Positions 7,062-24,397 are shown, numbered from the stretch's first letter. The stretch: 64,000 nucleotides of DNA from Candidatus Palauibacter soopunensis (GCF_947581735.1 NZ_CANPVT010000002.1:522144-586143), one strand, 5' to 3'. Notes: generated by a model not told the origin, from the letters alone. Program-made: numbers and translations.

Positions 7062-7067
7062 ATCACC

Positions 7068-7153: not shown

Positions 7154-7193
7154 ATGCAGGACGACATCGCCGGTCGCGGGACGGCCGGCTCCG

Positions 7194-7267
7194 AGCGCCC
7201 GTAGCTCAACTGGATAGAGCACCTGACTACGGATCAGGAGGTTGGGGATTCGAATTCTCCCGGGCGC
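7194..7267 (+). tRNA. tRNA-Arg(ACG)
   Basis: Acceptor gcgcccg/cgggcgc, anticodon loop CTACGGA. Confidence 0.9.
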
Positions 7268-7460
7268 ATGCTTTCCTTCCTTCGGGCGTCGAGACTGCGC
7301 CCGCAAGAATTCGGGCGCTCCTGGAGCTTCGCTCCCCTTCGCTGGCCAAATTCTCCCGGGCACTTCCTTTCCTGCACACGTGCCGGGCGGCGTTGTCCCT
7401 AGGCTCGCGACGGGCTTCGCCCGCTCGCTGACGAATCTCCTCCAGGACGGGGTCCATTAG

Positions 7461-7913
7461 ATGCGCGTCAGGCCGGCTGAACGGGGGGATGTGGATCGGC
7501 TGCTGGAGTTGATGCGGGGGCTCGCGCGGTTTGAGGAGTACATCGACGACTTCGTGGTGACGCGGGAGAGTGTGCTCGAGCATGGGTTCGGGGACGACCG
7601 TCTTTTCACCGCGTTTGTCGCCGAAGAGGACGATGATCTCGTCGGGATGGCCGTGGTTTACACGATTCCGTGGACCTATACGCTGCGGCCCAAGGTCGTG
7701 CTCAAGGAGCTGTTCGTCGAAGAGGGTGCGAGAAACCTGGGGGCGGGAAAGGCCCTGATGGCGGCGGTGATTTCGCACGCCGAGTCCATCGGTGCGGCCG
7801 AGTTGATCTGGACCGTAATGGACGGGAACCGGGCTGCAGAAGGCTTCTACCGATCCCTGGGCGCTTCCCCGGATCTCAAGTGGAACAACTGGTCCCTGAG
7901 CCTCGACGATTGA
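7461..7913 (+). CDS. GNAT family N-acetyltransferase
   Basis: 150 aa. RBS ggacgggg upstream. Acetyl-CoA binding block LGAGKALMAAVISHAESIGAAELIWTV. Confidence 0.8.
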   Translation: MRVRPAERGDVDRLLELMRGLARFEEYIDDFVVTRESVLEHGFGDDRLFTAFVAEEDDDLVGMAVVYTIPWTYTLRPKVVLKELFVEEGARNLGAGKALMAAVISHAESIGAAELIWTVMDGNRAAEGFYRSLGASPDLKWNNWSLSLDD

Positions 7914-7923
7914 ACCGGATCCG

Positions 7924-9540
7924 TCACCGCGTGCTCTGACCGGAAGTCCGCGCCGGGGGGCGGCAGTCGGGCCACTGGGTGCCGGGTGGCATGGTGCGGC
8001 GGTCGCGGGGCATGCGGTCCGGGTCCTCGGAGGCCAGGTAGGCGAACATCGCGGTCATCACGGCGTCGTCGCGCAGGTCCTCAAAGACGATCTTGTCGAA
8101 GCTGTCGCGGTTCGTGTGCCAGGTGTAGGTACTCGTGTCCCAGCGGTTGTCGGCGATGTTCATCTCGCTCCGGCCGGCGCCCACGTGGAAGCTGAAGGCC
8201 GGCACCCCGGCGCACAGGAACGACGCGTGGTCCGTCCCGCCGGATTCAGGCATCCCCGGGACCTCGAGCGTGACGAGGTCGGACAGCTCGCTCGGGATCT
8301 TCGCGAGCCACTCGCCGAAGCGCCCCGCCGCCCCGGCGAAGCCCTGCATGGGAATGAAGGTGACCGGGCCGTTTCCGTGATCGACGTTGAACACGGTGTG
8401 GGTGCGTTCGAGGATCTCGGGATGGTCCTCGACGAAGGCGCGTGATCCGTTCAACCCCTGCTCCTCACCGTTCCAGAGGGCGCCGATGATGGTGCGGCGG
8501 GGGTTCGGGACGGCGTGCTTCAGGATGCGCATCGCCTCCATGATCGCGACGGCGCCGGTGCCGTTGTCGAGCGCGCCGTCGGAGCCGTCCCAGGAATCAT
8601 AGTGGCCTCCGAGGATCACGTACTCCTCGGGTTCCGCGCTGCCGGGGATGACGGCGAAGGCGTTGAAGACCGGCACTTCTCCCAGGAAACGGGCCTGCGC
8701 GTCGACGCGCAGCACCGGCCCCTGATCGTTCTCGGCCAGCCGGTACAGCAGCCCGTACGCCTCGCAGCTCAGGTCCAGGACCGGCGCCCGCTGCGCGCGG
8801 GTGCCGAAGATCTTGGTGACGCCCCAGCCGTCGGACCACTGCGAGCGGATGATCCCGGCGGGTCCGCCTGCGTTCAGCGCTTCCGGCAGCGAGCGCGCAT
8901 CGAACCCCGTGTTCCCCACGCGTTCGCTCCACTCCGCGATGGCGCGCTCCCGCTCCGCCGCCATGCGGGCCGTGGTCTCGGGCCGCGCGAACCACTCCAG
9001 GTTGTCGCGCGGGCGGCAACTCGGCTCCGGGCGCGAGACGAGCACGAACTTGCCGCGCACCTCCGACAGCGCTGCCTCGAAGGCTCCGGGGCTGTCCGCG
9101 TCCGGCAGGATCACCACCTCCGCCTCGACGGGCCCGTCCGTGGCCGGGCTCCACGCGGCCGCCATGCCCTCGAGCGATCGCATGCGCGGCTGGATGAGAT
9201 CGATGTGGCTGATCCCCCGCTCCCATCCCCGCCACGTGCCGTACTGCTCCTTGTACGCCTCGATGCCCCACTCCGCGTACTTCGCGAGCGCCCAGTCGTT
9301 GGCGCCGGCCATTGCGGGCGAGCCGGTCAGCCGCGGCCCGATGGAGTCCATCATCACCTGGCCGAGCTGATAGACCTGTGAGCGCTCGACCCCCTCCTCC
9401 CAGATCGCCCGGATGACGGGATCGTCAGAGGGAAACGACTGCGCCGCCGCGCCCCGGGTTACGCCCGGAATCAGCGAAGCCGTCAGAGTGGAGAGGCATG
9501 CCAGCGAACAGGCGAGTTCGAGACGAGCCGTGCGCTTCAT
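7924..9540 (-). CDS. M28 family zinc peptidase with PA domain, exported
   Basis: Starts at M31 of ORF 7924..9630 (MKRTARLELACSLA signal) with RBS gggag. M28 blocks HYDSWDGSDGALDNGTGAVAIMEAMR and ALWNGEEQGLNGSRAF. Convergent with the GNAT gene. Confidence 0.85.
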   Translation of the reverse strand: MKRTARLELACSLACLSTLTASLIPGVTRGAAAQSFPSDDPVIRAIWEEGVERSQVYQLGQVMMDSIGPRLTGSPAMAGANDWALAKYAEWGIEAYKEQYGTWRGWERGISHIDLIQPRMRSLEGMAAAWSPATDGPVEAEVVILPDADSPGAFEAALSEVRGKFVLVSRPEPSCRPRDNLEWFARPETTARMAAERERAIAEWSERVGNTGFDARSLPEALNAGGPAGIIRSQWSDGWGVTKIFGTRAQRAPVLDLSCEAYGLLYRLAENDQGPVLRVDAQARFLGEVPVFNAFAVIPGSAEPEEYVILGGHYDSWDGSDGALDNGTGAVAIMEAMRILKHAVPNPRRTIIGALWNGEEQGLNGSRAFVEDHPEILERTHTVFNVDHGNGPVTFIPMQGFAGAAGRFGEWLAKIPSELSDLVTLEVPGMPESGGTDHASFLCAGVPAFSFHVGAGRSEMNIADNRWDTSTYTWHTNRDSFDKIVFEDLRDDAVMTAMFAYLASEDPDRMPRDRRTMPPGTQWPDCRPPARTSGQSTR

Positions 9541-9666
9541 GGGTCGCTCCCGCGGGAAGATGGAACCTGTTCGAAGGTAGGGGTGCCCACGCGCGTTGCG
9601 AATCCCTGTCCACGCCCGGACTTTGCCCACTCGGCATCACACGCGAACTCGAATCCCGAATTCCCC

Positions 9667-10939: not shown

Positions 10940-11944
10940 GTGGGCCTCGGGCTGGCGGTAGCGGCGACGCTACTCGTGGCGTCCTGCAGTGGCCCTGTGC
11001 CCCGCGACTCCGAACCGCCTACCTGGGAGGTACGCTTTTCCCACGTGCTGTCGACCGGCTCCGAGTTCCATCTCATGGCGGAGCGGTTCCGGGATCTCAT
11101 GCTCGAGCGCACGGATGGACGGTTCCGGGTCGTCATCTATCCGTCGGGACAGCTCGGGGGCGAGCGCGTCGCCTTCGAGCAGATCCAGGTGGGCGCGGTC
11201 CACATGGCGATTACGGGTACCCCCGTGCTCTCGGGCTGGGTGCCCGAGACGCAGGTCTTCGATCTCCCCTTCCTGTTCGAGACCCGGGACCACGGGCTCG
11301 CGGCGATGAACGGCCCGGCGGGAGACTGGTGGCGCGACCTCCTCCTTGAGCGCACGGGCGTCCGCTCGCTGGGCTTTCTCGACTACGGGTTCCGCCACGT
11401 CTACAATCGGCGCCGGCCCATCGAGGCGCCCGAGGATCTCGCCGGCCTCAAGCTCAGGGTCCTCCAGAACGCGACGTACCTGGCGGCCTATTCCGCGCTC
11501 GGCGTCCAGGCGACGCCGATGAACTACGGCGAGGTCTACTCCGCGCTGCAGCAGGGCGTGATCGACGGCGGGGAGGCGAACGCGATCGGTTTCGTGAGCA
11601 GCCGGCTCCACGAGGTGGCGAAGTTCTACAGCTTCACCTCCATCACGTACAACCCCATCACGCTTCTCGTGAACGAGCCGTTCTATCGGGGGCTCCCTGC
11701 GGAGATCCGGGAGATCGTCGACGGTTCCGCGGCCGAGGCGCTCGCCTACCAGAGCGAAGTCGCGCGCCGGATGGAGGCGGACGCCATCGTGGAGATGCGC
11801 GCGGCCGGCGTGGAGATCTCGCGTCCGAACCTGGCGCCGTTCGCCCCGGCCGTCAGACCGCGGATATGGGACGAACTGGCGAATCGGCTGCCGGACGGCG
11901 AAGCGCTGATCGCAAGGTTGGTGGCTTCGACGGAGCGCCGATGA
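10940..11944 (+). CDS. dctP: TRAP transporter substrate-binding protein (DctP family), probable lipoprotein
   Basis: DctP-family body (FRVVIYPSGQLGGE...QNATYLAAYSALG...EVAKFYSF). Start taken at in-frame GTG (residue 38 of track ORF 10829) after aaggggg, giving MGLGLAVAATLLVASC. The track ORF start at 10829 is a TTG overlapping the upstream gene, so the true start is uncertain. Confidence 0.8.
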   Translation: MGLGLAVAATLLVASCSGPVPRDSEPPTWEVRFSHVLSTGSEFHLMAERFRDLMLERTDGRFRVVIYPSGQLGGERVAFEQIQVGAVHMAITGTPVLSGWVPETQVFDLPFLFETRDHGLAAMNGPAGDWWRDLLLERTGVRSLGFLDYGFRHVYNRRRPIEAPEDLAGLKLRVLQNATYLAAYSALGVQATPMNYGEVYSALQQGVIDGGEANAIGFVSSRLHEVAKFYSFTSITYNPITLLVNEPFYRGLPAEIREIVDGSAAEALAYQSEVARRMEADAIVEMRAAGVEISRPNLAPFAPAVRPRIWDELANRLPDGEALIARLVASTERR

Positions 11945-12462
11945 CGAAGCGGCTGCAGGTGTTCAACGGGCTCCTGGTGAGGCTTGAAACCTACGCCGTC
12001 GGCATTCTTGTGATCGCGGTCTGCGACGTGGTTCTCCTCCAAGTGTTGATGCGCTACCTCTTCGCCTGGCCGAATCCGTGGAGCGAGGAGGTGTCGCGCT
12101 TCTGCTTCATCTGGATGTCGCTGCTCGGGGCTTCGCTGGCGGTGGCGCATCGGTCCCACTTCCGGTTCGACCAGGTCACGGGGCGGCTGCCTCCGCGCGC
12201 GAAGAAGGCGGTGGAGACGTCCGCGGCAGCGATCGTGCTGATGTTCGCGCTCCTCCTCATCGGCGCGGGCATCGCCCTCATGGACCTCACGATGGGAGAG
12301 CGTTCCGCCGCGTTGAACCTGCCCGTTGCGCTCGTGTATGCGGCGGCGCCCGTGTCCGGCGTGTTGATGGCGATCCACATGCTCGCGGGTCCGACGGTCG
12401 CCGATTCGGACCGGCGGCTCGCGCCGGGGGTTGAGGATCTTCCAGCCGAGGGCGGCGGCTGA
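11941..12462 (+). CDS. dctQ: TRAP transporter small permease (DctQ)
   Basis: ATG at M26 of ORF 11866..12462 overlaps the dctP stop (ATGA). Four TM helices typical of DctQ. Confidence 0.8.
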   Translation: MTKRLQVFNGLLVRLETYAVGILVIAVCDVVLLQVLMRYLFAWPNPWSEEVSRFCFIWMSLLGASLAVAHRSHFRFDQVTGRLPPRAKKAVETSAAAIVLMFALLLIGAGIALMDLTMGERSAALNLPVALVYAAAPVSGVLMAIHMLAGPTVADSDRRLAPGVEDLPAEGGG

Positions 12463-13736
12463 TGGGCGGACTCCTCCTCGGGGCTTTCGGCCTCCTCGTG
12501 CTGGCCGCCGTGCCCATCGGATTCGCGCTCGCAATCGCCGCCATCATCGCCATCGTGGTGGCGGATCTCCCACTCGTCGTCATCCCGCAGCAGATCGTCG
12601 CGGGGATGGACTCGTTCCCCATGCTCGCCGTGCCCCTGTTCATCCTCGCCGGCTACCTGATGGATGTCGGAGGGATCAGCCGTCGCCTGGTGACGCTGGC
12701 CCGCGCCCTCGTCGGCCACCTGCCGGGAGGGCTCGGGCAGGTGGTCGTCATGGCGGAGGTGTTCTTCTCGGGCGTGTCGGGTTCGACGTCCGCGGATGCG
12801 GCCGCCGTCGGCGGCATCATGGTGCCCCAACTGACCGCGAACGGGTACGGCCGGGCGCGTGCCACGGCGATCGTCTCGGCCGCGTGCGGGATGGGGATCC
12901 TCATTCCGCCCGCCATCGTGATGGTCGTCTACGGCGTCATCGGCAACGTCTCCATAGGCGCCCTGTTCATCGCCTCGATCGTGCCCGCGCTCCTCATCGC
13001 CGCGGGCCTGATGGCGCAGATCGGGTGGCAGGCGCGGAGGGAAGGGTGGCCCCGCGGGGAGTGCGCCTCGTTCGCGGAACTCCGCCGCGCGATGATCGAC
13101 GCGGTGCTCCCGCTCTTCATGATCGTCGTCATCCTGGGGGGCATCCGCTTCGGCCTCTTCACCCCCACGGAGGCCGCGGCGGTCGCCGTCGCCTATGCGC
13201 TGCTCCTGGCGGGATTCGTGTACCGATCGCTCACCCTGGCGGATCTTTGGAGCAAGGTCGTCCAGACCGCCGTGGTGTCCGGAATGGTGCTGTTCGTCGT
13301 GGGCGCCGCGCACCTTCTGGGCTGGGTCCTCGCCGTCCTGCAGCTGCCGCAGACGCTGGCGTCATCGGTGGTGGGGCTGGGCGGCGGCCAGATCGGCTTC
13401 ATGCTCCTCACGATTCTCGTCTTCCTTCCGCTCGGCGCCATCCTCGAGGGCGTGCCCGCGGTCGTCCTGCTGACGCCGATCCTTCTGCCGCTGGCGACGC
13501 AACTCGGGATCGACCCCGTGCACTTCGGCGCCGTCATCGTGGCGACGCAGGGGATTTCCGTGTTCCTGCCGCCCGTCGGCGTGAGCCTGCTCGTCGCCTG
13601 CTCCGTGGGAGGTGTCGAGCCGGCGGAGGTCGCGCGCCCGCTCTGGCCCTACCTCGCCCTCATGCTGGCGCTCACGGTCGCCATCGCGCTCCTGCCCGGC
13701 GTCGTCCTGTTCCTGCCGGAACTGCTCGGGTATTGA
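12462..13736 (+). CDS. dctM: TRAP transporter large permease (DctM)
   Basis: 424 aa polytopic protein. ATG overlaps the dctQ stop. DctM-family blocks such as FFSGVSGSTSADAAAVGGIMVPQL. Confidence 0.9.
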   Translation: MGGLLLGAFGLLVLAAVPIGFALAIAAIIAIVVADLPLVVIPQQIVAGMDSFPMLAVPLFILAGYLMDVGGISRRLVTLARALVGHLPGGLGQVVVMAEVFFSGVSGSTSADAAAVGGIMVPQLTANGYGRARATAIVSAACGMGILIPPAIVMVVYGVIGNVSIGALFIASIVPALLIAAGLMAQIGWQARREGWPRGECASFAELRRAMIDAVLPLFMIVVILGGIRFGLFTPTEAAAVAVAYALLLAGFVYRSLTLADLWSKVVQTAVVSGMVLFVVGAAHLLGWVLAVLQLPQTLASSVVGLGGGQIGFMLLTILVFLPLGAILEGVPAVVLLTPILLPLATQLGIDPVHFGAVIVATQGISVFLPPVGVSLLVACSVGGVEPAEVARPLWPYLALMLALTVAIALLPGVVLFLPELLGY

Positions 13737-13789: not shown

Positions 13790-14335
13790 ATGGAGACACG
13801 GGAGTTCGAGATCAGAACGGAGCGGTTGCTGCTGCGGCCGCACCGCCTGGAAGACGTCGACGACATCTTCGAGTTCGCCCGCGACCCGGAGTGGGCCCGA
13901 TACCTGCCGGTGCCGGTGCCATACCTCAGGGAACACGCGGAGGAGTTCGTGGCGCAGCGGATCCTCACGTCCCGGGAGGAGTGGCCGGTGTGGGCGATCG
14001 TCCTGGCAGGGAAGGTTATCGGCGGCATCGGAATCAGGATCGACGTCGAGCATGCGACGGGCGCACTGGGCTACTCGATTGCGAAGGAGCATTGGGGCCG
14101 AGGCCTGACCGTGGAGGCGGCCCGCGCCGTCGTCGACTGGGCGTTCCGCGAGCGCGGGCTCGCGAAGGTGTACGCGTACGCCGATGTGCGGAACACGTCG
14201 TCCCTGAGGGTGATGGAAAAGCTGGGCATGACCCGCGAGGGCATGTTGCGCGGCCACCGGACGCTGCGGGAGGAGCGGGTCGACGACGTGTACTACGGAC
14301 TCCTCAGGGAAGAGTGGGGGAGGGACGAAGGCTGA
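13790..14335 (+). CDS. GNAT family N-acetyltransferase (RimJ/RimL-like)
   Basis: In-frame ATG inside long track ORF 12431..14335. METREFEIRTERLLLRPHRLEDVDDIFEF...YSIAKEHWGRGLTVEAARAVVDWAF matches the RimL-type acetyltransferase pattern. Confidence 0.8.
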   Translation: METREFEIRTERLLLRPHRLEDVDDIFEFARDPEWARYLPVPVPYLREHAEEFVAQRILTSREEWPVWAIVLAGKVIGGIGIRIDVEHATGALGYSIAKEHWGRGLTVEAARAVVDWAFRERGLAKVYAYADVRNTSSLRVMEKLGMTREGMLRGHRTLREERVDDVYYGLLREEWGRDEG

Positions 14336-14344
14336 GTCGGTCCG

Positions 14345-15079
14345 TCAGTACTTGATGTCGGTTCGGCCGACCGTCATCCCGATGTTGCCGACCCGCCGCC
14401 CCATCGTGTAGTGCTCGCCACTCCCGGCGGTCATCCCGAAGAAGTCCACGGCCGGCACGATCAGGCGGCCGGCGTCGTCGACCGCGCCCTCGATGGCGGT
14501 CGTCGCCACGACCTCCGCGAGGAACACCTTCCGCTCGGGCGGCACCTCGAGGGAGTCGAAGATCCGGCACTCGCAGTGGATGGGGGACTCCTCCACGGTG
14601 GGCGCATCGACGACGGTCGCCGCGCCGCGCGTCAGACCCGAGAGCTCGAACTTGTCGGCCACGCGGCCGGAGTTCATGTCGACGGTGTCGAACGCCTCCA
14701 CCATCGACGCGAGCGGGACGTTCAGCACGAACTCGTCGTGCATGTCCAGGAGTTCCCTCGCCTGATGCTCTAGGGCTGCGCTCACCCCGATCTGGGGCGG
14801 GTCGCCGCTCACGACGAACGTCCACAGCACCGAGATCTCGTCCGGGTCGCCGGGCCGGCCGTTCACGGTGAGCAGAATCGCCGGGACGGGCGGGAGCATC
14901 GGGCCCGGCTCCGCAAGCAACCGGCGAGCCCCGGTGAGCGGCGCCGGCGGCCTACCCCCGCCCACCGGCATCCCTTCGTCGGGTGCACATCCCCAAACAG
15001 CGGCAACCGCGGCGGCCGCCGAGCCACTCCCCAGAAACCGCCTCCGCGACCAGCCGTGCGTTGCTGACATCGTCTTCAC
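14345..15079 (-). CDS. flavin reductase-like (FMN-binding split-barrel) domain protein with Tat signal
   Basis: 244 aa. SRRRFLGSGSAAAAVAAV twin-arginine signal. C-terminal region resembles the flavin reductase/HpaC-like domain. Last gene of the minus-strand operon running from 18745. Confidence 0.65.
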   Translation of the reverse strand: MKTMSATHGWSRRRFLGSGSAAAAVAAVWGCAPDEGMPVGGGRPPAPLTGARRLLAEPGPMLPPVPAILLTVNGRPGDPDEISVLWTFVVSGDPPQIGVSAALEHQARELLDMHDEFVLNVPLASMVEAFDTVDMNSGRVADKFELSGLTRGAATVVDAPTVEESPIHCECRIFDSLEVPPERKVFLAEVVATTAIEGAVDDAGRLIVPAVDFFGMTAGSGEHYTMGRRVGNIGMTVGRTDIKY

Positions 15080-15115
15080 CGCCTCCTCGCGGATGACTCG
15101 CCGTTCGACCCGACA

Positions 15116-16255
15116 TCAATAGATGCCGGGGATGATCCGATATTTGACCCGTGCTTGATACTCGGCCCACTTCTCGGGGCCGTATTTTTCGGCGCAGAAC
15201 TTGTCGTCGAAGCGCTGTCGAAAAATGAACAGTCCGACGATGAAGACGAAGTAGGTCCAGGCCCAGGGGTTGGCGAAGTAGCCGAACACGAGGGCGATGG
15301 AGAGGGAGAAGAGGCCCTCGCCGAGATAGTTGAAGTGGCGGGCGACGCCCCACAGGCCGCTGCACAGGATCTTGCGGTCGCCGGCCTCGATGTACTCGGG
15401 CTCGATGAGACCGAGGAACTTGCGCTCGGGCCAGCGCTTGAAGGTGTACTTCTGCATGTTGGCGCCGCGCGTGATGCCCCATGCGACGAGGAACAGCGCG
15501 GGTGCGCCGATCAACCACACCTGTCTCCAGGGCGCCGCGAAGCCGGGGGCCGGGTACACGGCCAGGCCCCACAGCGGCAGGATGTAGAGCCACCCGTACA
15601 CCATGATCCCGCCCCAGATCATCTTGAAGCCGAGCTTCTCGTGGATCACATCGTACGTGTAGAGCTGGACGCGCTCGAAGATGAAGTAGTCGAAGACGTA
15701 GAACGTGAGGAACCCCGCGTAGAGGAAGACGCCGGGGTTGGAGTCCGCGCCGAAGAGCCCGTAGTGGTACGCGGCTCCGGAGAGGGCGTTCAGCGACAGC
15801 ATGGTCCCGCCGACGACGTACAGGAACATCTTCACGTCGAAGCGTTCGTTGAAGAACGAAAGCTCGAGGACGCGCCCTTCCCAGAGGGCGGCGAGCGGGC
15901 GCTCCACCTTGTCGCGCGACCCTCCGAACACCGCGAGGAGGGCGAAGACCAGGCACATGACCGTGCCGCCGGCCACCTGGTAGACGGTGGACCGGTAGAA
16001 CCAGTCTCGCGGCATCCCGGTGAGTTCGAGCGCCCACACGACCTCGGCGAGCACGAACACCGGCAGACCGTTCAGTCGGTAGCCGCGGGGCTCGCCGGTC
16101 TCCGGGTTGATGACGTAACCCGGGACCCGCCTTCCAGGCAGAATGAGTTGCAGCACGAAGAACGCGGCGCAGATCGCGAGCGGGGCGAGGAAGCCGGCAA
16201 GCGCTTCGGTCCCGGAAAGCGCGAACAGATGGCCGATGCCAAGCCATTCAATCAT
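15116..16255 (-). CDS. ERG4/ERG24 sterol-reductase family membrane protein (7-dehydrocholesterol/delta14-sterol reductase-like)
   Basis: 379 aa polytopic protein with the family signature CSGLWGVARHFNYLGEGL and C-terminal KYGPEKWAEYQARVKYRIIPGIY. Start ATG overlaps the upstream stop (TGATG). Confidence 0.8.
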   Translation of the reverse strand: MIEWLGIGHLFALSGTEALAGFLAPLAICAAFFVLQLILPGRRVPGYVINPETGEPRGYRLNGLPVFVLAEVVWALELTGMPRDWFYRSTVYQVAGGTVMCLVFALLAVFGGSRDKVERPLAALWEGRVLELSFFNERFDVKMFLYVVGGTMLSLNALSGAAYHYGLFGADSNPGVFLYAGFLTFYVFDYFIFERVQLYTYDVIHEKLGFKMIWGGIMVYGWLYILPLWGLAVYPAPGFAAPWRQVWLIGAPALFLVAWGITRGANMQKYTFKRWPERKFLGLIEPEYIEAGDRKILCSGLWGVARHFNYLGEGLFSLSIALVFGYFANPWAWTYFVFIVGLFIFRQRFDDKFCAEKYGPEKWAEYQARVKYRIIPGIY

Positions 16256-16599
16256 CAGAAAAGATCCTCCCCGGGGAACGCCGATGCCTGCCGGAGCCAG
16301 TCTGCCAGGAGATCCTCGTCCGGCTCGTCGTCCTCGTAGATGTGGAAGTAGCGCACCTGCTCGTGCTTCGATTCCACCGGCGGCGCGGGACGCAGCGAGG
16401 CGCCGTTGAGGAACGTCACCTTGACGTACCGCGTGAAGCAGTGGAACGAGAGGAACCAGCCCCTGTCTTCGATGCCGTAGAAGGGCGAGTTCCAGCGGAC
16501 CGCCCTGCGGACATCAGGCACGTTACGCTCGATGAGCGCGTCGAGGTGGCGGCCGACCTCCCGTTTCCAACCCGGCATGGCCGTGATGTACGCCTGCAC
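16255..16599 (-). CDS. DUF1801 (YdhG-like) domain protein
   Basis: Real gene is the C-terminal 114 codons of track ORF 16255..17322. GTG start preceded by aaggggga gives VQAYITAMPGWKREVGRHLDALIERNVPDVRRAVRWNSPFYG, typical DUF1801. Stop overlaps the ERG4-like start by 1 nt. Confidence 0.6.
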   Translation of the reverse strand: MQAYITAMPGWKREVGRHLDALIERNVPDVRRAVRWNSPFYGIEDRGWFLSFHCFTRYVKVTFLNGASLRPAPPVESKHEQVRYFHIYEDDEPDEDLLADWLRQASAFPGEDLF

Positions 16600-16667
16600 G
16601 GGCGCATCTCCATCCCCCTTCGGAATCTGGGGATTGCCGCCGGAGAGGAGTTTCGCGACCAGGCCCG

Positions 16668-18128
16668 CTATCCCTCCGTCCGCGCGAACCGCAGGTTCCT
16701 GACCCGCCCGGCGTCGACGATCAGCGCCTCGTGCCGGCCGCCGACGAGTTCGGAGAAGCGGAGGGTCGGCCCGTCCTCGGTCGTGAGTTGCCTCTCCGAT
16801 TCGGCCACGAGGGCGACCGGGTCCCGCCGGCCGACGTGCAGCATGAGCCCGGCAGCGCCGTCCTCCACGATCCGATACGTGGCGTCCAACTCGGGACTGT
16901 AGAAGGATCCGGCGTAACGCGCGCGGTTCGGAATGTCGTGGTCGGGCAGAGCCTCGGGAGCGTCCTCGTCTGCGGCCTGCATCTCCTCCTCTCCCTCCGC
17001 GACGTCCTCGGGCGGATCCATCGCGTCTTCCAGGTAGATTTCGGCCGTGCTCGCGATGAGGGCCATGGGATCGATCCGCGACCGGTTGCACAGGGCGACG
17101 AACGAGTAGCCGGCGTCGGGATAGCGGGACATGCCCGTGCGGTAGCCCACCCACGAGCCACTGTGCCGCACCGTGGCCAGCCCCCGGTGTTCGCCGTGGG
17201 AGAGACCGAAGGCGTACGGAATCGTGTCGCCGGAGGTGAGCACGCCCCGCTCGTGCATGAGCGCGACCCACTCCGGTCCGCCGACCGTACCCTCGGTGAG
17301 GTTGCGGTCCCAGGCGGGCCACTCCTCCACCGAAGTGTAGATGCCGCCGTCCCCGACCACGTCGAGCGTCGTCATGTTGATCCGGAAGCCGTCATCGGTG
17401 GGGGAATAACCGGTCGCCCGGTCGGCGACGACTTCGTTGTGGTCGTCGTGGAAGTGCGTGCGCGGCATGCCCAGAGGATCGAAGAACTCGGCCCGCGCGA
17501 ACTCCCGCAGGCTCTGCCCCGAAACCTTGGCCACGATCTCGGCGAGCAGGACGTAGCCGGAGTTGCTGTACAGGTACTCGGAGCCCGGAGGAAAGTTTAG
17601 TTCGCGCTGCCGGTGGATCGCATCGAGGATGTCCTGATTCGTGATGAAGTCCTCGCTCCGGTTCCCCGCCAGGGTGAAGAGCACGAGGTAGTCGCGCACG
17701 CCGGACGTGTGGTGGATCAGGTGTCGGACGGTGGGAGAGTCGGCGTAGTCGGGGAATTCGGGGATGTAGCGCCGGACGGGAGCATCCAGATCCACCTCTC
17801 CCCGGAGGGCGAGCAGGGCGACCGCGCCGGCCGTGAACTGCTTCGAGACGGACGCGATGCGGTAGATGGTCTCCGGGCCGTTCGGGATGCCGTGGTCGAG
17901 GTTGGCGGTGCCGTAGCCGGCGGCGTGGATCGGGCGGCCGTCCCGGATCACGGCCATGGAGCAGCCGGGCCCGTCGGCGCTGGCGTAGTCGGCGAAGACG
18001 GCGTCGACTTGGGCCTGCAGCTCGCCGTCGGCCCCCGGGGCGCAGCCTGTGAGCGCGCCGACCAGGATCGCGGCCACGGCGGCCGTCCCGGCCGGATGAC
18101 GGTCGGGGCGCCGCGGGTGCGCGGTCAG
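16668..18128 (-). CDS. beta-lactamase-family serine hydrolase, lipoprotein
   Basis: Beta-lactamase fold with SVSKQF (SxxK) and YSNSGY motifs. Probable CTG start (residue 277 of ORF 16668..18956) after gaggggg gives the lipoprotein signal LTAHPRRPDRHPAGTAAVAAILVGALTGC and overlaps the upstream stop as CTGA. An alternative GTG start lies at 18077. Confidence 0.75.
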   Translation of the reverse strand: MTAHPRRPDRHPAGTAAVAAILVGALTGCAPGADGELQAQVDAVFADYASADGPGCSMAVIRDGRPIHAAGYGTANLDHGIPNGPETIYRIASVSKQFTAGAVALLALRGEVDLDAPVRRYIPEFPDYADSPTVRHLIHHTSGVRDYLVLFTLAGNRSEDFITNQDILDAIHRQRELNFPPGSEYLYSNSGYVLLAEIVAKVSGQSLREFARAEFFDPLGMPRTHFHDDHNEVVADRATGYSPTDDGFRINMTTLDVVGDGGIYTSVEEWPAWDRNLTEGTVGGPEWVALMHERGVLTSGDTIPYAFGLSHGEHRGLATVRHSGSWVGYRTGMSRYPDAGYSFVALCNRSRIDPMALIASTAEIYLEDAMDPPEDVAEGEEEMQAADEDAPEALPDHDIPNRARYAGSFYSPELDATYRIVEDGAAGLMLHVGRRDPVALVAESERQLTTEDGPTLRFSELVGGRHEALIVDAGRVRNLRFARTEG

Positions 18129-18745
18129 GATCGCCCCCTCGGCCAGAGGCTGAACGGTTCGCGCGCGAACACCCGGCGGACCATCGGCTCGAAGAACTCG
18201 AGCGGGAGCGAGTCGTAGTCGGGGTCGAAGGCGCACTGGTCCCAGCGGTGGCAGAAGTCCACCGCGTCCTGGTACCAGGGGTGGTCGCGGTATCGGTCGC
18301 GCACGTTGCGGTCGCGGCCCAGGTGGTGGGCGTAGTAGACGAGCTGGAACAGGCCGTGGTGCCGGACGATCCAGTGCGTGCGCTCGGTCACGAAGGGGCG
18401 GAGCAGCAGGGCGGCCAGTTCGCCGTGGCTGTGCGGGGCCAGCAGATCGTCGATGTCGTGCAGGAGCGCCGCCACGACCATCTCCTCTTCCGCGCCGTCG
18501 CGATGGGCGCGGGTCGCGCTCTGCAGTGAATGTTCGAGCCGGTCGACGTGGTAGCCGCCAACGGAGCCTGACAGCTCGCGGAGGTGCGCCAGCACGCGGT
18601 CGGCGGTATCGGCGGCGAACTCGTCCTCGAGGCGCGCGAGCAGTTCGTAGTCCTCGCGGGTGCCGTCCTCCATGCGCGTGAAACTCACGACGGGGCCGCT
18701 CGGCCCTCTGCCGGCTCCTGCGCTCGTCCCGGCCGTACGGGGCAT
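18125..18745 (-). CDS. HD-domain oxygenase-like protein (PhnZ/TmpB-like mixed-valent diiron oxygenase family)
   Basis: About 206 aa from M26 of ORF 18125..18820 (RBS ggagag). HD motif LLHDIDDLL plus an additional His cluster (HWIVRHHGLFQLVYYAHHLG). Size and motif spacing match the small HD oxygenases rather than phosphohydrolases. Confidence 0.65.
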   Translation of the reverse strand: MPRTAGTSAGAGRGPSGPVVSFTRMEDGTREDYELLARLEDEFAADTADRVLAHLRELSGSVGGYHVDRLEHSLQSATRAHRDGAEEEMVVAALLHDIDDLLAPHSHGELAALLLRPFVTERTHWIVRHHGLFQLVYYAHHLGRDRNVRDRYRDHPWYQDAVDFCHRWDQCAFDPDYDSLPLEFFEPMVRRVFAREPFSLWPRGRS

Positions 18746-18882
18746 GCCGGTCACTCTCCGCTGAGGGTTGGATCGGGGGTTCCTCGCCGCAGCGTCGGCA
18801 GAAGCGAAGGGCATTGTCAAGATCGCTCGGGCGTCCGTAGCGTTCGCTGCAGGCCGGTGACCACGGACTGGGAGGATCGACC

Positions 18883-19998
18883 ATGGGTGCCTCGATCAGC
18901 AGCCTCGCGCAGAACGGCGACGCCCTGACGGCGGTCTGGAGCGACGGCGAACGCACCGATCTCCCCTACCTCTGGCTGCGCGACAACTGCGGCTGCGGAG
19001 AGTGCTGCGTCGAGCAGACCACGGAGAAGCGCTTCCACGTCTTCCGCGTCCCCAGCGACCTGAAGCCGTCGACGGTCGATATCGAAGGCGCCGGATCCGA
19101 CGACGAGGCGATTTCCATCGCCTGGCCGGACGGACACCGCACGCGCCACCGGTCGAGCGACATCCACGGCCTCCTGAGCCGGCCTCGTCTCGAATTGCAG
19201 TACTGGGACGGACGGTTCGAGCCCCGGAGGTTCGACTACCAGCGGTTCCTGGCGGACGACAGCGCGGCGGCGGAACTGATCGAGGAGTTCCTGCGCACCG
19301 GGGTGTGCGTACTGGTCGCCGCTCCCACCGAACCGGATTCGTTGGAGGAGCTCGCCGTCCGTCTGGGCCCGGTCCGGGAGGTGCTGTTCGAGCGCATCCA
19401 CAACGTCAAGCTCGATCCGAAGGGCTACAACATCGCGCATACGGCTCTGGCCGTCGGGGCGCACAACGACTTCACCAGCTACACGTGGCCCCCGAGCGTG
19501 CAGGCGCTGCACATGCTGGTGAACGAGTGCGAGGGCGGCGCGTCGACCGTCGTGGACGGCTTCGGCCTGCTCGAGGCGCTCCGCCGGGAGCACCCCGATA
19601 AGTTCGACGCCCTGTGCTCGGTGCCGGTGCCGTTCCGGATCTTCAGCGACGAGTACGAGTGCTACGCGGCGAACCCCATGGTCGACCTCGACAGTGACGG
19701 GGAGATCAGGATGATCCGCTTCAACACGGCGCAGATGCAGGCCGTTTCCCTGTCGGAGCCCCGGCTGGGCGAGTTCTACGCCGCCTACCACGAGCTGTCG
19801 AGCCGCGTCAACGACCCCGGCGCCCAGGTGACCTTCCGGCTGGAGGGCGGCATGATCCTTCTGTGTGCCGGACACCGCGTCCTCCACGGCCGCACCGAGA
19901 TGGTATCGTCCGGCGCGCGCCACCTGCAGGACGCCTACTTCGAACACGACAACGTCCGCACCCACCTGCGGCTCCTCCGCCGCACCGGCCGCGCCTGA
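18883..19998 (+). CDS. gamma-butyrobetaine hydroxylase/TmpA-like Fe(II)/2-oxoglutarate dioxygenase with N-terminal DUF971 zinc domain
   Basis: 371 aa. CxCxxC...H zinc motif (LWLRDNCGCGECC...DGHRTRH), TauD-fold HxD (AHNDFT) and a distal His (HRVLHGRTE). Divergent from the HD oxygenase gene. Confidence 0.8.
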   Translation: MGASISSLAQNGDALTAVWSDGERTDLPYLWLRDNCGCGECCVEQTTEKRFHVFRVPSDLKPSTVDIEGAGSDDEAISIAWPDGHRTRHRSSDIHGLLSRPRLELQYWDGRFEPRRFDYQRFLADDSAAAELIEEFLRTGVCVLVAAPTEPDSLEELAVRLGPVREVLFERIHNVKLDPKGYNIAHTALAVGAHNDFTSYTWPPSVQALHMLVNECEGGASTVVDGFGLLEALRREHPDKFDALCSVPVPFRIFSDEYECYAANPMVDLDSDGEIRMIRFNTAQMQAVSLSEPRLGEFYAAYHELSSRVNDPGAQVTFRLEGGMILLCAGHRVLHGRTEMVSSGARHLQDAYFEHDNVRTHLRLLRRTGRA

Positions 19999-20031
19999 GA
20001 ACCGGGTCAGCCCAATGCACGGACCACGACC

Positions 20032-20988
20032 ATGCCGAAGGAGAGTCCCATGAAGAGCCTGGGCGATACGACGCGACGCGACTTCCTGTCTTCCCTCGCG
20101 GGTGCCGGCGCTGTGCTGGCTGCCCCGCGCGCCCTGTTCGGGAGTACGCCCCCGGTCCAGGAGACGCTTCCCACCCGTCCGATCCCGGGAACGGAGGAGA
20201 CGCTGCCCATTGTCGGCTTCGGCTCCTCGAAGCCCGTGCTCGAGATCCCGACCGAAGGGACGGAGCCCGTGGCGAACGTGATCCGCATGCTCCTCGAGCA
20301 TGGGGGCCGCGTCGTCGATACCTCGCCGCGCACGCCGGAGATCGACGCGGAGTTCGGCACGGTCCTGACGGCGCCGGAGTTCGGCGGCCGCCTCTTCGTC
20401 GCCACGAAGATCAACACGGACGGGGAAGCCGCGGGCATCGAGCAGATGCGGCAGAACCAGCGGCTCGTCGGCAGCCGCACCCTGGATTTGCTCGAGGTCG
20501 AGAGCATGCGCGACCTGGACGTGCACTGGCCCAACGTGCTCCGCTGGAAGGACTCGGGCGAGGCGCGCTACATCGGCGTCACCACGTCCAGCATCCCCCA
20601 GCACGAGGCGTTCGAGTCGTTCATGCGGACGCAGCCCCTCGACTTCGTGCAGGTCAACTACTCGGTGATGGAGCCGAACGCGGAGGATCGTCTCCTGCCG
20701 CTCGCGCAGGATCTCGGGCTCGCCGTCCTCATCAACCGTCCGTTCATGAACGGTACCTACTTCCCCCGCGTGAGCGGACACGAGCTGCCCGAATGGGCGG
20801 CCGAGTTCGACTGCGCGAGCTGGGCGCAGTTCTCCCTCAAGTACATCCTCGCCCACCCCGCCGTGACGTGCGCCCTCACGGAAACGACGAATCCGGATCA
20901 CATGGCGGAGAACATCGGCGCCGCCTTCGGCCGCCTCCCCGACGAGGCCACGAAGCGCCGCATGCGGGAGTTGGTCCAGGACTTCTGA
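20032..20988 (+). CDS. aldo/keto reductase family protein with Tat signal
   Basis: 318 aa. TRRDFLSSLAGAGAVLAAP twin-arginine signal and an AKR TIM-barrel body. 34 nt downstream of the dioxygenase on the same strand. Confidence 0.75.
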   Translation: MPKESPMKSLGDTTRRDFLSSLAGAGAVLAAPRALFGSTPPVQETLPTRPIPGTEETLPIVGFGSSKPVLEIPTEGTEPVANVIRMLLEHGGRVVDTSPRTPEIDAEFGTVLTAPEFGGRLFVATKINTDGEAAGIEQMRQNQRLVGSRTLDLLEVESMRDLDVHWPNVLRWKDSGEARYIGVTTSSIPQHEAFESFMRTQPLDFVQVNYSVMEPNAEDRLLPLAQDLGLAVLINRPFMNGTYFPRVSGHELPEWAAEFDCASWAQFSLKYILAHPAVTCALTETTNPDHMAENIGAAFGRLPDEATKRRMRELVQDF

Positions 20989-21002: not shown

Positions 21003-21965
21003 TCAGCGGTCGGCCAGGATCTCTCCCCCGCAAAGGACGAGTTCGTCGTCGATCCAGACTGTGGGAGTGCGGTTGACCGCATCGAAGTGGGTTTTGGCGG
21101 AGACGGTGCCGCCGAGGTTGGCGGAGGTGCCGATGCCGATGTGGACGGTGCCGTTCACGCCTTCGTCGTTGAGCATTTCGCCGGTGAACTCGGTGCAGGC
21201 CGGGTTCAGGCCGAAGGCGAACTGGGCGAGGTTGTAAACCCAGGGGTCGTCCTGTCGGGCCAGCAGGTCCGCGAGGAATTCGGCCTGGTCGCCGCCCTCG
21301 ATGTCGGTGACGAAGCCCTTCGAAATGCGGAAGGTCACGGGTTTGCGGATGGGACCCACGCCGTAGTAGGGGATGCTCCCGTCACACACGAACACGCCCT
21401 CGGCGGTGCCCTGCGCGGGGGCACAGTTCGCTTCGATGTTGGGAACGGCGGAGAAGCCGGGGCCGTCCAGCAGGCAGGCGTGGCTGTTCCCGGTCACGCC
21501 TTCGAGGCTAATGGTGAGATCGGTGCCGGCGGGGTTCGTCACCCGCAGGCGCTCGCCGGCGGTGAGCTTCGCCGCGATGGCGTCGCACAGCGGCTTGCGC
21601 GCGCGGAAGTCCGTGAACAGCCCGCCGTCGCGCATCATCCGCTCGGTGAACGCGGTCATGGACAGAACTCGGGCTCCGGCGCCTATGGCCTCGCGGACCG
21701 CGCGGGTGTGCGCCAGGGCCAGCGTCACGGGCAGGAAGGCGATGTCGGCGGCCGAGAGCGCCGCGGCCACGGCGGGTCCCGGCTCTTCGTTGTCGATCGA
21801 CCGCTCCGGCGGGGTCACGATGCTCGCGACGGCCCCGGCCTCAAGCGCGGCGTCGGCGACGGTCCGGGCGATCGTCATCCGCTCCGGATCCGTGACGATG
21901 ACCACGTCCTCGGCGGGCTGCACGTTGGCGCACGTCCGCACCAGGATCTCCGCGCCTCTCCTCAC
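21003..21965 (-). CDS. M29 aminopeptidase-like / NicX-like family protein (paralog A)
   Basis: 320 aa. N-terminal VQPAEDVVIVTDPERMTIARTVADAALEAGA matches the M29 (aminopeptidase T) pattern, but the length is short for AmpS. Confidence 0.5.
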   Translation of the reverse strand: MRRGAEILVRTCANVQPAEDVVIVTDPERMTIARTVADAALEAGAVASIVTPPERSIDNEEPGPAVAAALSAADIAFLPVTLALAHTRAVREAIGAGARVLSMTAFTERMMRDGGLFTDFRARKPLCDAIAAKLTAGERLRVTNPAGTDLTISLEGVTGNSHACLLDGPGFSAVPNIEANCAPAQGTAEGVFVCDGSIPYYGVGPIRKPVTFRISKGFVTDIEGGDQAEFLADLLARQDDPWVYNLAQFAFGLNPACTEFTGEMLNDEGVNGTVHIGIGTSANLGGTVSAKTHFDAVNRTPTVWIDDELVLCGGEILADR

Positions 21966-21978
21966 GATGGTTCCTGCT

Positions 21979-22941
21979 TCATACCAGCACCTGCTTGTCG
22001 CGCTGGACGACGCGGCAGTCGACGGCGATGGTCGGCTCCCACATCAGCAGGTCGTAGTGCGTCGGGGCCACGATTTCGCCTCCGAGGGTATGGCTGGTGC
22101 CGATGCCGATGTGGATCGTGCCCATGACGCCCTCGTCCTCGAGCATCTCTCCGGTGAGGCGGGCGTTCGGGTTCAGGCCGACGCCCAACTCGGCGACGTT
22201 GAAGCAGTGGGGGTCCTCGAAGGACTCCAGGTGCTCGCGCAGGAAGTCGGCCTGCGTCCCGCCGGTCATCTCCACGATGGCGCCTTCGCGCACGGAGCAG
22301 ACGATGGGCTCCTCGAGGATGCCGATGCCGAGGTAGGGGACCGAGGCGTCGAAGATGAGCGTGCCCTCCGCCGAACCGGTCACGGGCACGACGTTGACCT
22401 CGATGTCGGGGACCGGGGCCAGTTCGCCGGGTTCCGGGATGTTCGTGAGGACGTTCGCGACGCGACCCTCGATCCCGAAGCGGAGATCCGTTCCGCGCGG
22501 GGAAGTGAGCCGCACGGACTTGCCCTCCGTGAAGGCCGCGCCAAGGCGGCGGCAGACACCGGCCTGCGCCTCGAAGTCGGTCTCGAGCAGCGCGGGGCTG
22601 GTCATGATCGCGTCGGTGTACGCCGTCATCATGCAGACGCGCCCGCCCGCCTCCAGTGCGGCCCGCATCGCGCGCGTGTGGGTGATCGAGATGCGCACGG
22701 GGGAGAAAATCACGTCGGCCTCGGCCATAGCCCGGGCGACCGGAGAGGGCGGCTCCTGCCCGTCCTGATTCCGCATAGGAATAATGCACACGGTGACGTC
22801 GGCGCCGGCGTCGCGGGCGGCCGCGGCCACGGCATCCGCGTACCGCCGCATCGTCGGGTCGGTCACGATCACGACGACTTCACCCGGCTGGACGCGCCCG
22901 TTCACGTGCACGAGCCGCCGCGCGCCGGGCGAGAGATCCAT
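21979..22941 (-). CDS. M29 aminopeptidase-like / NicX-like family protein (paralog B)
   Basis: Tandem paralog of the previous gene (VQPGEVVVIVTDPTMRRYADAVAAAARDAGA). Start taken at M18 of ORF 21979..22992 (RBS gagg), which aligns with the paralog A start. Confidence 0.5.
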   Translation of the reverse strand: MDLSPGARRLVHVNGRVQPGEVVVIVTDPTMRRYADAVAAAARDAGADVTVCIIPMRNQDGQEPPSPVARAMAEADVIFSPVRISITHTRAMRAALEAGGRVCMMTAYTDAIMTSPALLETDFEAQAGVCRRLGAAFTEGKSVRLTSPRGTDLRFGIEGRVANVLTNIPEPGELAPVPDIEVNVVPVTGSAEGTLIFDASVPYLGIGILEEPIVCSVREGAIVEMTGGTQADFLREHLESFEDPHCFNVAELGVGLNPNARLTGEMLEDEGVMGTIHIGIGTSHTLGGEIVAPTHYDLLMWEPTIAVDCRVVQRDKQVLV

Positions 22942-22963
22942 CCCGGCCTCAGCCACGGCCCCG

Positions 22964-24172
22964 TCAGCCACGATCCCTCGCGAAAAACTCATCGAATCGA
23001 CCGTCGAAGATGATCGCGGTGTAGCCGTCTCCGGTCGTGTTCGTCGCGGTGCGCAGCATGTCGGGGATACCGCCGGAGAGCGCGATCCAGCTCGCGATGA
23101 ACTCGCCCTGAGCCTGACCTTCCAGTCCCAGCATGCTCGCGAACAGCGTCGCGCTCCACAGCGCCGTCCCCATGCCGGCCGGGAGCCCGGGAGCGGCGAT
23201 CGTGAACAGGACGACGGCGGGCCACGCGGCGAGCATCATCATCCAGCTCAATTCCAGGCCGAACACGTAGCTGACGACGAAGGGTCCGTACGCGACGTAG
23301 GCCAGCGCGCTCGCGTCCAGGTTCGCGACGGCGCCGAACGGGAGGACGAAGTCGGCCACCTCGTCGCGGACGCCGACCTTCTTCGCGTTGGCGAGGTTGA
23401 CCGGGAGCGTCGCCAGCGAGGAACACGTGCCCGCGGCGAAGACCGCGGTGGGCACGTAGTACTCACTCAACACGGGCCCCACGGGCCGGCGTCCGACCCT
23501 CCGGACGAGCACGAACGTGTAGAACGCCCACCAGATGAGGACGAGGGCGCCGGTGTAGGCGGCCATCGTGAGATAGTGGGAGAGCCCCAGGCTCGCGCCG
23601 AAGCGCACGCCCAGCGTGATCCCGAAGGCGAGGATGAGCGGGAGCATGACGTAGGCCAGCTTGCCGCCCGCCTTCTCGATCGAGTCGGCGACTCGTCGGA
23701 GTACGCGGTAGGTCGGATCGTGCCGGGCGCCGAAGGCTCCGAGCAGGACTCCGGCGAGGATCGCGAGCAGCGGCCAGGAGGCCCCGCCGTCGCCGAGGCT
23801 CCGCAGCATGGCCGCGGCTTCGGTCCATACGCCCCGGTCCCCCGTGGCCAGCGGGATGCGGAAGATCGTGGCGGAGGTCACGACGGCGATGAGTCCGGCG
23901 ACCGTCGACGTGAAGACGTACCACAGGACGACCGCGCCCGCGAAGCGCCCGGCGAGCCCGCGACGAATCAGGGTCGCGATGGCCGGGCTGAGGGCCGCGA
24001 GGATCAGCAGCGGCACGACGGCGACAACCCAGGCGATAAGCGTGCCCGTGGCGTCGGCCACCGGCGCCAGCGGCACGGGGAGGGACCCACCCGCAGCCAG
24101 CCCTCCCGCCAGCGCCAGGATCGTCCAGACGTACGCGGGGACGTTACGCCTCCGCCGCCCTCGGGCCCTCAC
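22964..24172 (-). CDS. dicarboxylate/amino acid:cation symporter (DAACS/SDF family)
   Basis: 402 aa polytopic protein with GTG start. Sodium:dicarboxylate symporter-family features. Confidence 0.75.
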   Translation of the reverse strand: MRARGRRRRNVPAYVWTILALAGGLAAGGSLPVPLAPVADATGTLIAWVVAVVPLLILAALSPAIATLIRRGLAGRFAGAVVLWYVFTSTVAGLIAVVTSATIFRIPLATGDRGVWTEAAAMLRSLGDGGASWPLLAILAGVLLGAFGARHDPTYRVLRRVADSIEKAGGKLAYVMLPLILAFGITLGVRFGASLGLSHYLTMAAYTGALVLIWWAFYTFVLVRRVGRRPVGPVLSEYYVPTAVFAAGTCSSLATLPVNLANAKKVGVRDEVADFVLPFGAVANLDASALAYVAYGPFVVSYVFGLELSWMMMLAAWPAVVLFTIAAPGLPAGMGTALWSATLFASMLGLEGQAQGEFIASWIALSGGIPDMLRTATNTTGDGYTAIIFDGRFDEFFARDRG

Positions 24173-24318: not shown

Positions 24319-24397
24319 AGGCGAAGCGTAGTGTCTTCAGGAAAAAGTTGGCAACGCCACGGTCAACCTGCATCACCCCGCTGAGCCCGGAGGCCCC

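Follow-up and report, generated by a model that had tools for sequence, protein, structure and literature searches.

A mosaic gene string in Candidatus Palauibacter soopunensis with an HD protein paired to a GBBH-like dioxygenase and a 379-aa ERG4/ERG24-family reductase

In a 64-kb stretch of Candidatus Palauibacter soopunensis DNA (G+C about 69%), referred to here as the window, five open reading frames (ORFs) lie on the minus strand within positions 14345-18745. Starting from the first gene of the string, they encode an HD-domain protein, a beta-lactamase-fold serine hydrolase lipoprotein, a DUF1801 protein, an ERG4/ERG24-family reductase, and a flavin-reductase-like lipoprotein with a signal for twin-arginine translocation (Tat). 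A first-pass annotation had named all five products, and each of these identities was borne out by Pfam. It had also read the genes as one stoichiometrically translated set acting on a membrane or lipid-linked substrate, a grouping that overlooked the conserved partner of the HD protein, a divergently encoded GBBH/TmpA-like Fe(II)/2-oxoglutarate (Fe/2OG) dioxygenase. Following our analyses, we favour with reasonable confidence another explanation, namely that the region is a Palauibacter-specific and probably co-transcribed string of genes that was recently assembled and does not make up one pathway. The string is an ordinary mosaic operon of uncharacterised subfamilies from known enzyme families, and it is confined to part of the genus Candidatus Palauibacter and broken even inside it.

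Gene order and junctions of the string

Gene order was compared across relatives using the ERG4-like protein as an anchor, which gave 80 genome loci with 10-kb flanks that were searched with the other proteins of the window. Besides the window, only loci L001, L002 and L006 and one metagenome locus, L088, were found to have the exact five-gene order; the five genes are thus syntenic in some relatives, a check that the first-pass annotation had proposed. Other loci depart from this order. The hydrolase is missing from L003, L004 and L087, and about 850 nt separate the ERG4-like gene from the flavin-reductase-like gene in L005. In L007 a gene for a CYP51-like P450 (8471-9838, minus strand), 79% identical to the CYP51 of L008, lies antisense between the DUF1801 and ERG4-like genes. 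In L008 the HD gene is 9 kb off, with a five-gene sterol cluster (1290-9513, minus strand) between it and DUF1801, and in L086, another Palauibacter genome, the HD and hydrolase genes are followed by unrelated genes and transposases, the other three genes not being in the string. The same genes are nearby and rearranged in L010-L012, which are more distant Longimicrobiales, and in other phyla none of the four partners was found within 10 kb of the ERG4-like gene in the 80-locus set.

Synteny thus ends at the genus boundary and is broken inside the genus, and each component was found without the others, whereas an operon for a single pathway would be expected to keep its order beyond close relatives and its components together. 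This argues against reading the five genes as one stoichiometric pathway for a membrane or lipid substrate. Two points weigh on the other side, against the reading that we prefer. The loci compared are the best 80 of at least 574 genome loci, and weaker associations are possible beyond this sample. Moreover, the HD/GBBH-like pair and the hydrolase, ERG4 and DUF1801 genes lie within about 14 kb in L010-L012, and such linkage, kept despite a rearranged order and different flanking genes, could reflect selection for linkage.

The hydrolase gene itself is a clean presence/absence polymorphism (L003, L004, L087 about 3642-3668, versus 16662-18128 in the window). The HD stop CTGA leads straight into DUF1801 in L003 and L004 (at about 9594 in both), and the deletion could have been mediated by short CTG-NNC-GCG repeats at the starts of both genes.

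Table 1. Features of the gene string and of the divergent dioxygenase gene, in coordinates of the 64-kb window
Feature	Coordinates	Strand	Remarks
HD-domain protein, PhnZ/TmpB-like putative diiron oxygenase	18125..18745	-	206 aa; first gene of the string
Beta-lactamase-fold serine hydrolase lipoprotein	16668..18128	-	486 aa; CTG start; Pfam Beta-lactamase E 1.7e-62
DUF1801 protein	16255..16662	-	135 aa; CTG start; Pfam DUF1801 E 4.4e-17
ERG4/ERG24-family NADPH reductase	15116..16255	-	379 aa; Pfam ERG4_ERG24 E 2e-36
Tat-signal lipoprotein, flavin-reductase/flavoredoxin-like FMN domain	14345..15070	-	241 aa; Pfam Flavin_Reduct E 2.5e-16
GBBH/TmpA-like Fe(II)/2-oxoglutarate dioxygenase	18883..19998	+	divergent; Pfam GBBH-like_N and TauD
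HD/GBBH-like divergent intergenic region	18746..18882		conserved promoter-like block

The first and third junctions of the string are overlaps, of 4 and 1 nt, and the second and fourth are gaps, of 5 and 45 nt. Both of the overlaps reported earlier are real: the HD stop TGA (18127-18125) and the hydrolase start CTG (18128-18126) share a CTGA, and DUF1801 and ERG4 share a TGATG (16257-16253). Between them, at a junction on which the first-pass annotation is silent, the hydrolase stop TAG (16670-16668) is followed after 5 nt by the DUF1801 start CTG (16662-16660). The tight junctions described in the first-pass annotation therefore stand, with a correction to the last one, which had been given as a gap of 36 nt; it is 45 nt because the conserved start of the flavin-reductase-like gene is the ATG at 15070 (MSATHGWSRRRFL), 11 nt after a GAGGAGG, and not the GTG at 15079. 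Co-directional genes in bacteria often overlap or abut in this way, and such an arrangement supports co-transcription and not a common function. The 4-nt and 1-nt overlaps, the Shine-Dalgarno-like motifs, and a single conserved promoter-like block upstream of HD all fit co-transcription, and from these sequence features the five genes are probably co-transcribed.

The hydrolase has no ATG, GTG or TTG close to its lipoprotein signal, and a Shine-Dalgarno-like GAGGGGG lies upstream of its CTG. In orthologues the corresponding start reads ATGA (L005 and L086), GTGA (L002) or CTGA (L001, L006 and L007). For DUF1801, a GTG occupies the same position in L011 and L012, and an earlier start is excluded because L001 has an in-frame TGA just upstream. 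The neighbouring hydrolase and DUF1801 genes therefore both start on CTG with Shine-Dalgarno-like motifs, and the CTGs are retained in several Palauibacter species. Such starts appear consistent with termination-reinitiation, and the locus is a clean natural case of CTG starts kept at translationally coupled junctions.

Upstream of the string, the HD start (ATG at 18745) is conserved and preceded by GGAGAG, and a perfect TTGACA, also conserved, occurs at 18820-18815 on the minus strand. Alignment of eight Palauibacter loci over the intergenic region showed invariant CTTGACAA..GCCCT.CGC and CCGACGCTGC blocks. The TTGACA and CCGACGCTGC blocks are likely to form a promoter or operator region shared by the two divergent genes. 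A scan for consensus promoters and terminators gave no signal on the minus strand, with counts at or below the shuffle expectation, and was uninformative. The Rfam scan of positions 14000-20200 returned only a chance-level snoRNA match, and therefore no riboswitch is indicated between the two divergent genes.

The HD protein and its divergent dioxygenase

The gene that does travel with HD is the divergent one. A GBBH-like/TauD gene adjoins HD in the window, L001-L007, L010-L012, L081-L083, L086-L088 and L165, which covers every HD-bearing Palauibacter and Longimicrobiales locus but L008, where no GBBH-like gene was found in the 700 bp available upstream of HD. In a Spirochaetaceae metagenome-assembled genome (MAG) from a sponge and in another lineage the order is GBBH-like/HD/GCV_T, with a DMGDH-like gene alongside, and in L010 a gene for a BCCT betaine/carnitine/choline transporter (11739-13391) separates the adjoining GBBH-like/HD pair from the ERG4-like gene. 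The company of GCV_T, DMGDH-like and BCCT genes elsewhere points to quaternary-amine catabolism for the pair.

Two types of context were observed for the HD family. Proteins with an HDIDD motif occur with the GBBH-like dioxygenase, and with GCV_T and DMGDH-like genes nearby (L081-L083, L165). Those with an HDIGD motif (L084, L166, L167, L168) lie between two genes for short-chain dehydrogenases/reductases (SDRs), with luciferase-like monooxygenases and no dioxygenase.

The HD protein had been called a PhnZ-like oxygenase. Its Pfam match is weak and sub-threshold (19.6 bits versus a cut-off of 22); the identification as an oxygenase rests on fold and ligand evidence. Scores against the NCBIfam equivalogs were 32.4 bits for TmpB (cut-off 300) and 39.2 bits for Phn-HD (cut-off 214.6), and by sequence the protein aligns with PhnZ/TmpB only near the first His and the HD motif, over about 50-70 residues, the overall identity being 20-23%. 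The ligand set H...HD...H...H...D is present, and no change from H72, H96-D97, H107, H130 or D169 is seen in 20 homologues; from the sequence, the last Asp ligand would be D169 and not D174. An AlphaFold (AF2) model, with a predicted local distance difference test (pLDDT) score of 75.6, was compared by Foldseek with the PDB, where it matched PhnZ and TmpB over the whole of their length, the only chains with E <0.01 (2.5e-4 to 1.6e-3; template-modelling scores 0.48-0.68 over 153-186 columns) and the next matches had E values of at least 0.1. These results agree with the earlier assignment and suggest that the protein is a putative diiron oxygenase of the PhnZ/TmpB fold.

The active site of PhnZ and TmpB is gated by a YxxE loop, Y24/E27 in PhnZ (PMC8177086). 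The window protein has no YxxE in register; in the HMMER alignment E27 of PhnZ aligns with Tyr65 and Y24 has no Tyr counterpart, and an invariant G64-Y65-x-x-D68 is found three residues later than YxxE.

The dioxygenase matched TmpA (E 5.6e-44) and the gamma-butyrobetaine enzyme BBOX (E 2.2e-41) about equally, with NCBIfam scores of 233.5 bits for TmpA (cut-off 400) and 237.2 bits for BBOX (TIGR02409; cut-off 414.75). It retains the HxD...H iron ligands and the N-terminal Cys3His zinc site. Phosphonate binding in TmpA involves N187, N287 and R288, while BBOX has carboxylate-binding N191 and N292/293 and an aromatic cage that includes Tyr194 (PMC9296572). Of the TmpA residues, the window dioxygenase retains the equivalent of N187 (YNIAH) and has Thr for N287 and Ala for R288, and six HD-paired homologues have T or A at the N287 position and A or Q at R288. 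With respect to BBOX, the dioxygenase retains N191, has Thr for the second Asn, and has an invariant His at the position of Tyr194. Because the substrate residues of both enzymes are changed, the substrate is probably neither trimethylaminoethylphosphonate (TMAEP) nor gamma-butyrobetaine. The first-pass annotation had suggested, as a possible substrate, a lipid headed by a quaternary amine or a phosphonate, and it is the phosphonate part of this idea that is weakened, because the dioxygenase is without Asn287 and Arg288, the phosphonate-binding residues of TmpA.

The known systems closest to this pair are TmpA/TmpB of Leisingera caerulea and PhnY/PhnZ, in which an Fe/2OG hydroxylase and an HD mixed-valent diiron oxygenase cleave the C-P bonds of (trimethyl)aminoethylphosphonate. 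As in TmpAB and PhnYZ, a GBBH-family dioxygenase gene in the window lies beside that of an HD protein of roughly 200 aa which shares their ligand set and fold. The window HD protein differs from PhnZ/TmpB in the missing in-register YxxE and the low sequence identity, and the dioxygenase differs from TmpA and BBOX in the Thr/Ala at N287/R288 and the His at BBOX Tyr194. The two proteins were also considered as TmpAB orthologues and this was ruled out, since neither N287/R288 nor the YxxE register is conserved and the scores are far below the cut-offs.

By analogy with these systems, the dioxygenase would hydroxylate a small compound of the trimethylammonium type, and the HD protein would then oxidatively cleave the C-X bond beside the new hydroxyl, the product presumably entering betaine/N-methyl and one-carbon catabolism. 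The pair of an HDIDD-type HD protein and a GBBH-like dioxygenase may be a third kind of hydroxylase-plus-HD-oxygenase system, acting on a sponge-derived quaternary-ammonium substrate other than TMAEP or gamma-butyrobetaine.

Beyond the dioxygenase, 33 nt after its gene, an aldo/keto reductase with a twin-arginine signal is encoded on the plus strand (20032-20988). It is unusual for an enzyme of this kind to be exported, since the periplasm is not expected to contain NAD(P)H.

The hydrolase, the flavoprotein and the 379-aa reductase

The hydrolase carries SVSK, YSN and HSG motifs and a conserved LTGC lipobox, and its closest solved structures are the Pab87 protein, related to penicillin-binding proteins, and D-aminopeptidase (DAP). 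Like DAP and Pab87 it has the SxxK, YxN and HxG motifs and a beta-lactamase domain followed by a C-terminal extension; unlike DAP it has a lipoprotein signal, scores 160 bits against a DAP cut-off of 443, and is one of three paralogues in the window. The two further beta-lactamase-fold ORFs lie at 5356-6726 and 45823-47427. The window is also rich in peptidases (GGT, M28, M19 and two M29/NicX-like) and contains an alanine racemase and an amino-acid permease, with genes of these kinds at 632-2482, 7924-9636, 21003-22992, 24332-25666 and 53900-55129. This gene content suggests peptide and D-amino-acid scavenging.

The hydrolase gene occurs near the HD/GBBH-like pair in two arrangements, that of the window and that of L011 and L012. 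The periplasmic lipoprotein would be an optional cassette, translationally coupled to HD, and it may free the substrate of the pair from an ester or amide conjugate. That the hydrolase supplies a substrate to the pair is possible, although three genomes are without it, and in Palauibacter the quaternary-ammonium substrate could be supplied in this way. The remaining DUF1801, reductase and flavoprotein genes would then form a third component, made up of three independently distributed genes. For DUF1801, no solved relative was found by sequence search.

In the flavin-reductase-like protein, alignment of 24 homologues showed that the SRRRFL twin-arginine motif, the VWGC lipobox and a low-complexity linker are conserved. 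The twin-arginine motif is followed by the lipobox Cys, as in Tat lipoproteins, and TIGR01409 scored 16.7 bits, exactly at its cut-off; with this signal and lipobox, the protein is predicted to be a periplasmic lipoprotein. Its closest solved structures are flavoredoxins. It shares the Flavin_Reduct domain with the flavoredoxin/DIM6-NTAB family, and it differs from that family in its Tat signal, lipobox and low-complexity linker. NAD(P)H is not available in the periplasm. The conserved N-terminus and the likeness to flavoredoxin make this a predicted Tat-exported lipoprotein with FMN, and not a demonstrated flavin reductase. Four homologues of 184 aa (P0323, P0327, P0336 and P0346; 85-90% identity) were called without the Tat/lipobox N-terminus, and these are either cytoplasmic variants or gene-call artefacts.

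The 24-homologue alignment was used as an anchor for metagenome loci, of which 78 were obtained, about 70 with a substantial match. Among these the ERG4 gene adjoins the flavoprotein gene only in L087 and L088, both with the Palauibacter order. In the other loci, on marine and other environmental contigs, the flavoprotein gene is alone or beside a TRAP transporter, and it is alone in most Gemmatimonadota loci. No conserved partner of the flavin-reductase-like gene emerged from a search of about 70 metagenome loci.

The same is true of the ERG4-like gene, for which all-against-all clustering of the neighbouring ORFs in the 80 genome loci found no conserved neighbour. The largest neighbour cluster, present in 12 of the 80, was rejected as a partner; it consists of unrelated generic SDRs joined by single linkage. 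Two of the five genes thus lack any conserved neighbour, which is difficult to reconcile with one lipid-tailoring pathway.

The reductase scored 125.9 bits against ERG4_ERG24 (PF01222; gathering score 27) and matched the delta14-sterol reductase MaSR1 with E 3.4e-35, in an alignment that begins at MaSR1 residue 86. Residues N359 and R395 of MaSR1, in the NADPH pocket, are the counterparts of two disease residues of LBR, N547 and R583 (PMC4951196); they align with N309 and R346 of the reductase, which are invariant in 28 clade members. The protein therefore resembles the delta14-sterol reductases (MaSR1, 4QUV; ERG24/TM7SF2/LBR) in its Pfam family and in its conserved C-terminal NADPH-binding half, and differs from canonical ERG24 in forming a separate clade whose alignment lacks the first 85 residues of MaSR1.

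The clade is very uniform. Its proteins are always 379 aa long and 74-97% identical across the 80 loci, which belong to at least 10 phyla, and in a library clustered at 50% identity they form essentially one cluster. The closest genome match is the Gemmatimonadota MAG L001 (97%), followed by Palauibacter L002-L004 (93-95%). MAG titles name Gemmatimonadota, Dehalococcoidia/SAR202, Nitrospirales, Thermodesulfobacteriota, Acidobacteriota, Binatia, Latescibacterota, Nitrospinota, Opitutales and Rhodospirillaceae, with further named matches in Gammaproteobacteria, Acidimicrobiaceae and Dadabacteria. Wherever the isolate name reveals the source, the MAGs come from sponges, and the clade is mostly sponge-derived overall. 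An exact-sequence look-up of the protein matched no record. Outside the clade identity falls to 50%, 42% and 38% for the next full-length relatives, and beyond these are choanoflagellate and other eukaryotic sequences and annotated delta14-sterol reductases, at 35-45% over the C-terminal half. The G+C of the gene tracks that of its flanks (r = 0.84), which suggests a long-resident gene under strong purifying selection and not a freshly transferred one. Two copies of the 379-aa gene are present in some MAGs (L002 with L063; L043 with L045).

Sterol genes were found near the 379-aa gene in two of the 80 loci, namely the cluster in L008 and the CYP51 gene in L007; none was found near it in the other 78, nor in the 64-kb window. 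The L008 cluster, a complete one for sterol synthesis situated immediately upstream of DUF1801-ERG4(379 aa)-flavoprotein, encodes an SDR/3beta-hydroxysteroid dehydrogenase (3beta-HSD), a Rieske/VanA_C protein, a canonical 368-aa ERG24, CYP51, and a 1188-aa squalene-epoxidase::oxidosqualene-cyclase (OSC) fusion. It resembles the ERG24-CYP51-OSC clusters of sponge symbionts, which Kelly et al. (2022) described in Ircinia symbionts, together with ERG24-type genes that are enriched and 'scattered' in sponge MAGs (PMC9531527). We considered whether the 379-aa reductase is this published cluster ERG24, and ruled it out; it is a paralogue of the canonical ERG24 of L008, with 30-35% identity, and is not embedded in such clusters. 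The position of the 379-aa gene next to sterol genes in L007 and L008 is a hint of a sterol substrate. Most likely, the reductase would saturate a C=C bond in a sterol or another polycyclic isoprenoid of host or symbiont origin, and the enzymes of the 379-aa clade may reduce C=C bonds in sterols from the host or its symbionts.

Alternative explanations and what the string means

Other explanations of the region have to be weighed against a recently assembled mosaic. In line with the first-pass reading, the five genes, together with the divergent dioxygenase, could form one pathway for tailoring or degrading a membrane lipid whose head group is a quaternary amine or a phosphonate, for example a sponge phosphonolipid or a betaine lipid; once the hydrolase had freed the head group, this would be cleaved by the GBBH-like and HD enzymes, and the lipid moiety would be the substrate of the reductase and flavoprotein. 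The tight junctions and the one conserved upstream promoter-like block agree with this, as do the order kept in five Palauibacter loci and the loose clustering of the gene set in L010-L012 despite rearrangement. We nevertheless regard it as improbable. Each component is found without the others, three genomes manage without the hydrolase, an antisense CYP51 gene interrupts the string in L007, and in other phyla it is GCV_T-type genes and not string genes that come after HD; moreover, the dioxygenase lacks N287 and R288 of TmpA. Another reading, in which the genes adjoin one another because the region is an indel hot-spot or a genomic island, without shared transcription, and the short gaps reflect nothing but genome compaction, would account for the variety of insertions and deletions by which close relatives differ at precisely these junctions, and for the transposase and AAA_14/DUF4143 genes nearby in L086 and L011. 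This seems very unlikely, given that the 4-nt and 1-nt overlaps and the 5-nt spacing leave no room for promoters, that CTG starts with Shine-Dalgarno-like motifs fit coupled translation, and that the consensus scan found no terminator-like site on the minus strand.

An explanation that carries more weight, though we still consider it rather unlikely, is that DUF1801-ERG4-flavoprotein is a sterol-modifying unit tied to a symbiont sterol cluster and read through from an unrelated HD operon. In L008 this unit adjoins the SDR/Rieske/ERG24/CYP51/squalene-epoxidase::OSC genes and in L007 a CYP51 gene is beside ERG4, the nearest named relatives of the reductase are delta14-sterol reductases, and Kelly et al. 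(2022) report an enrichment of scattered ERG24-type genes in sponge MAGs (PMC9531527). However, sterol genes accompany the 379-aa gene in just two of 80 loci and are absent from the 64-kb window, its identity to the canonical cluster ERG24 is 30-35%, and DUF1801 and the flavoprotein are unlinked to ERG4 outside Longimicrobiales. A mosaic operon that is not one pathway therefore remains the explanation that we prefer.

Because the five-gene pathway fails, no new lipid-tailoring system is to be inferred from the string, and its novelty lies at the level of uncharacterised subfamilies. Only tentatively, and with some doubt, we propose the HDIDD-type HD/GBBH-like pair and the 379-aa clade together as two separate uncharacterised activities relevant to sponge metabolites and sterols. 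The names of several Palauibacter species allude to a host that is a sponge or a coral (P. irciniicola, P. rhopaloidicola and P. poriticola; PMC10469786). The HD/GBBH-like pair is widespread, and it would extend to another substrate the principle of PhnYZ and TmpAB, hydroxylation followed by oxidative cleavage. The ERG4/ERG24-type reductase is extremely conserved across the sponge microbiome and could connect bacterial symbionts with sponge sterol chemistry. If true, its reading as a sterol reductase would matter for the question of which organisms produce or modify the unusual sponge sterols that serve as biomarkers.

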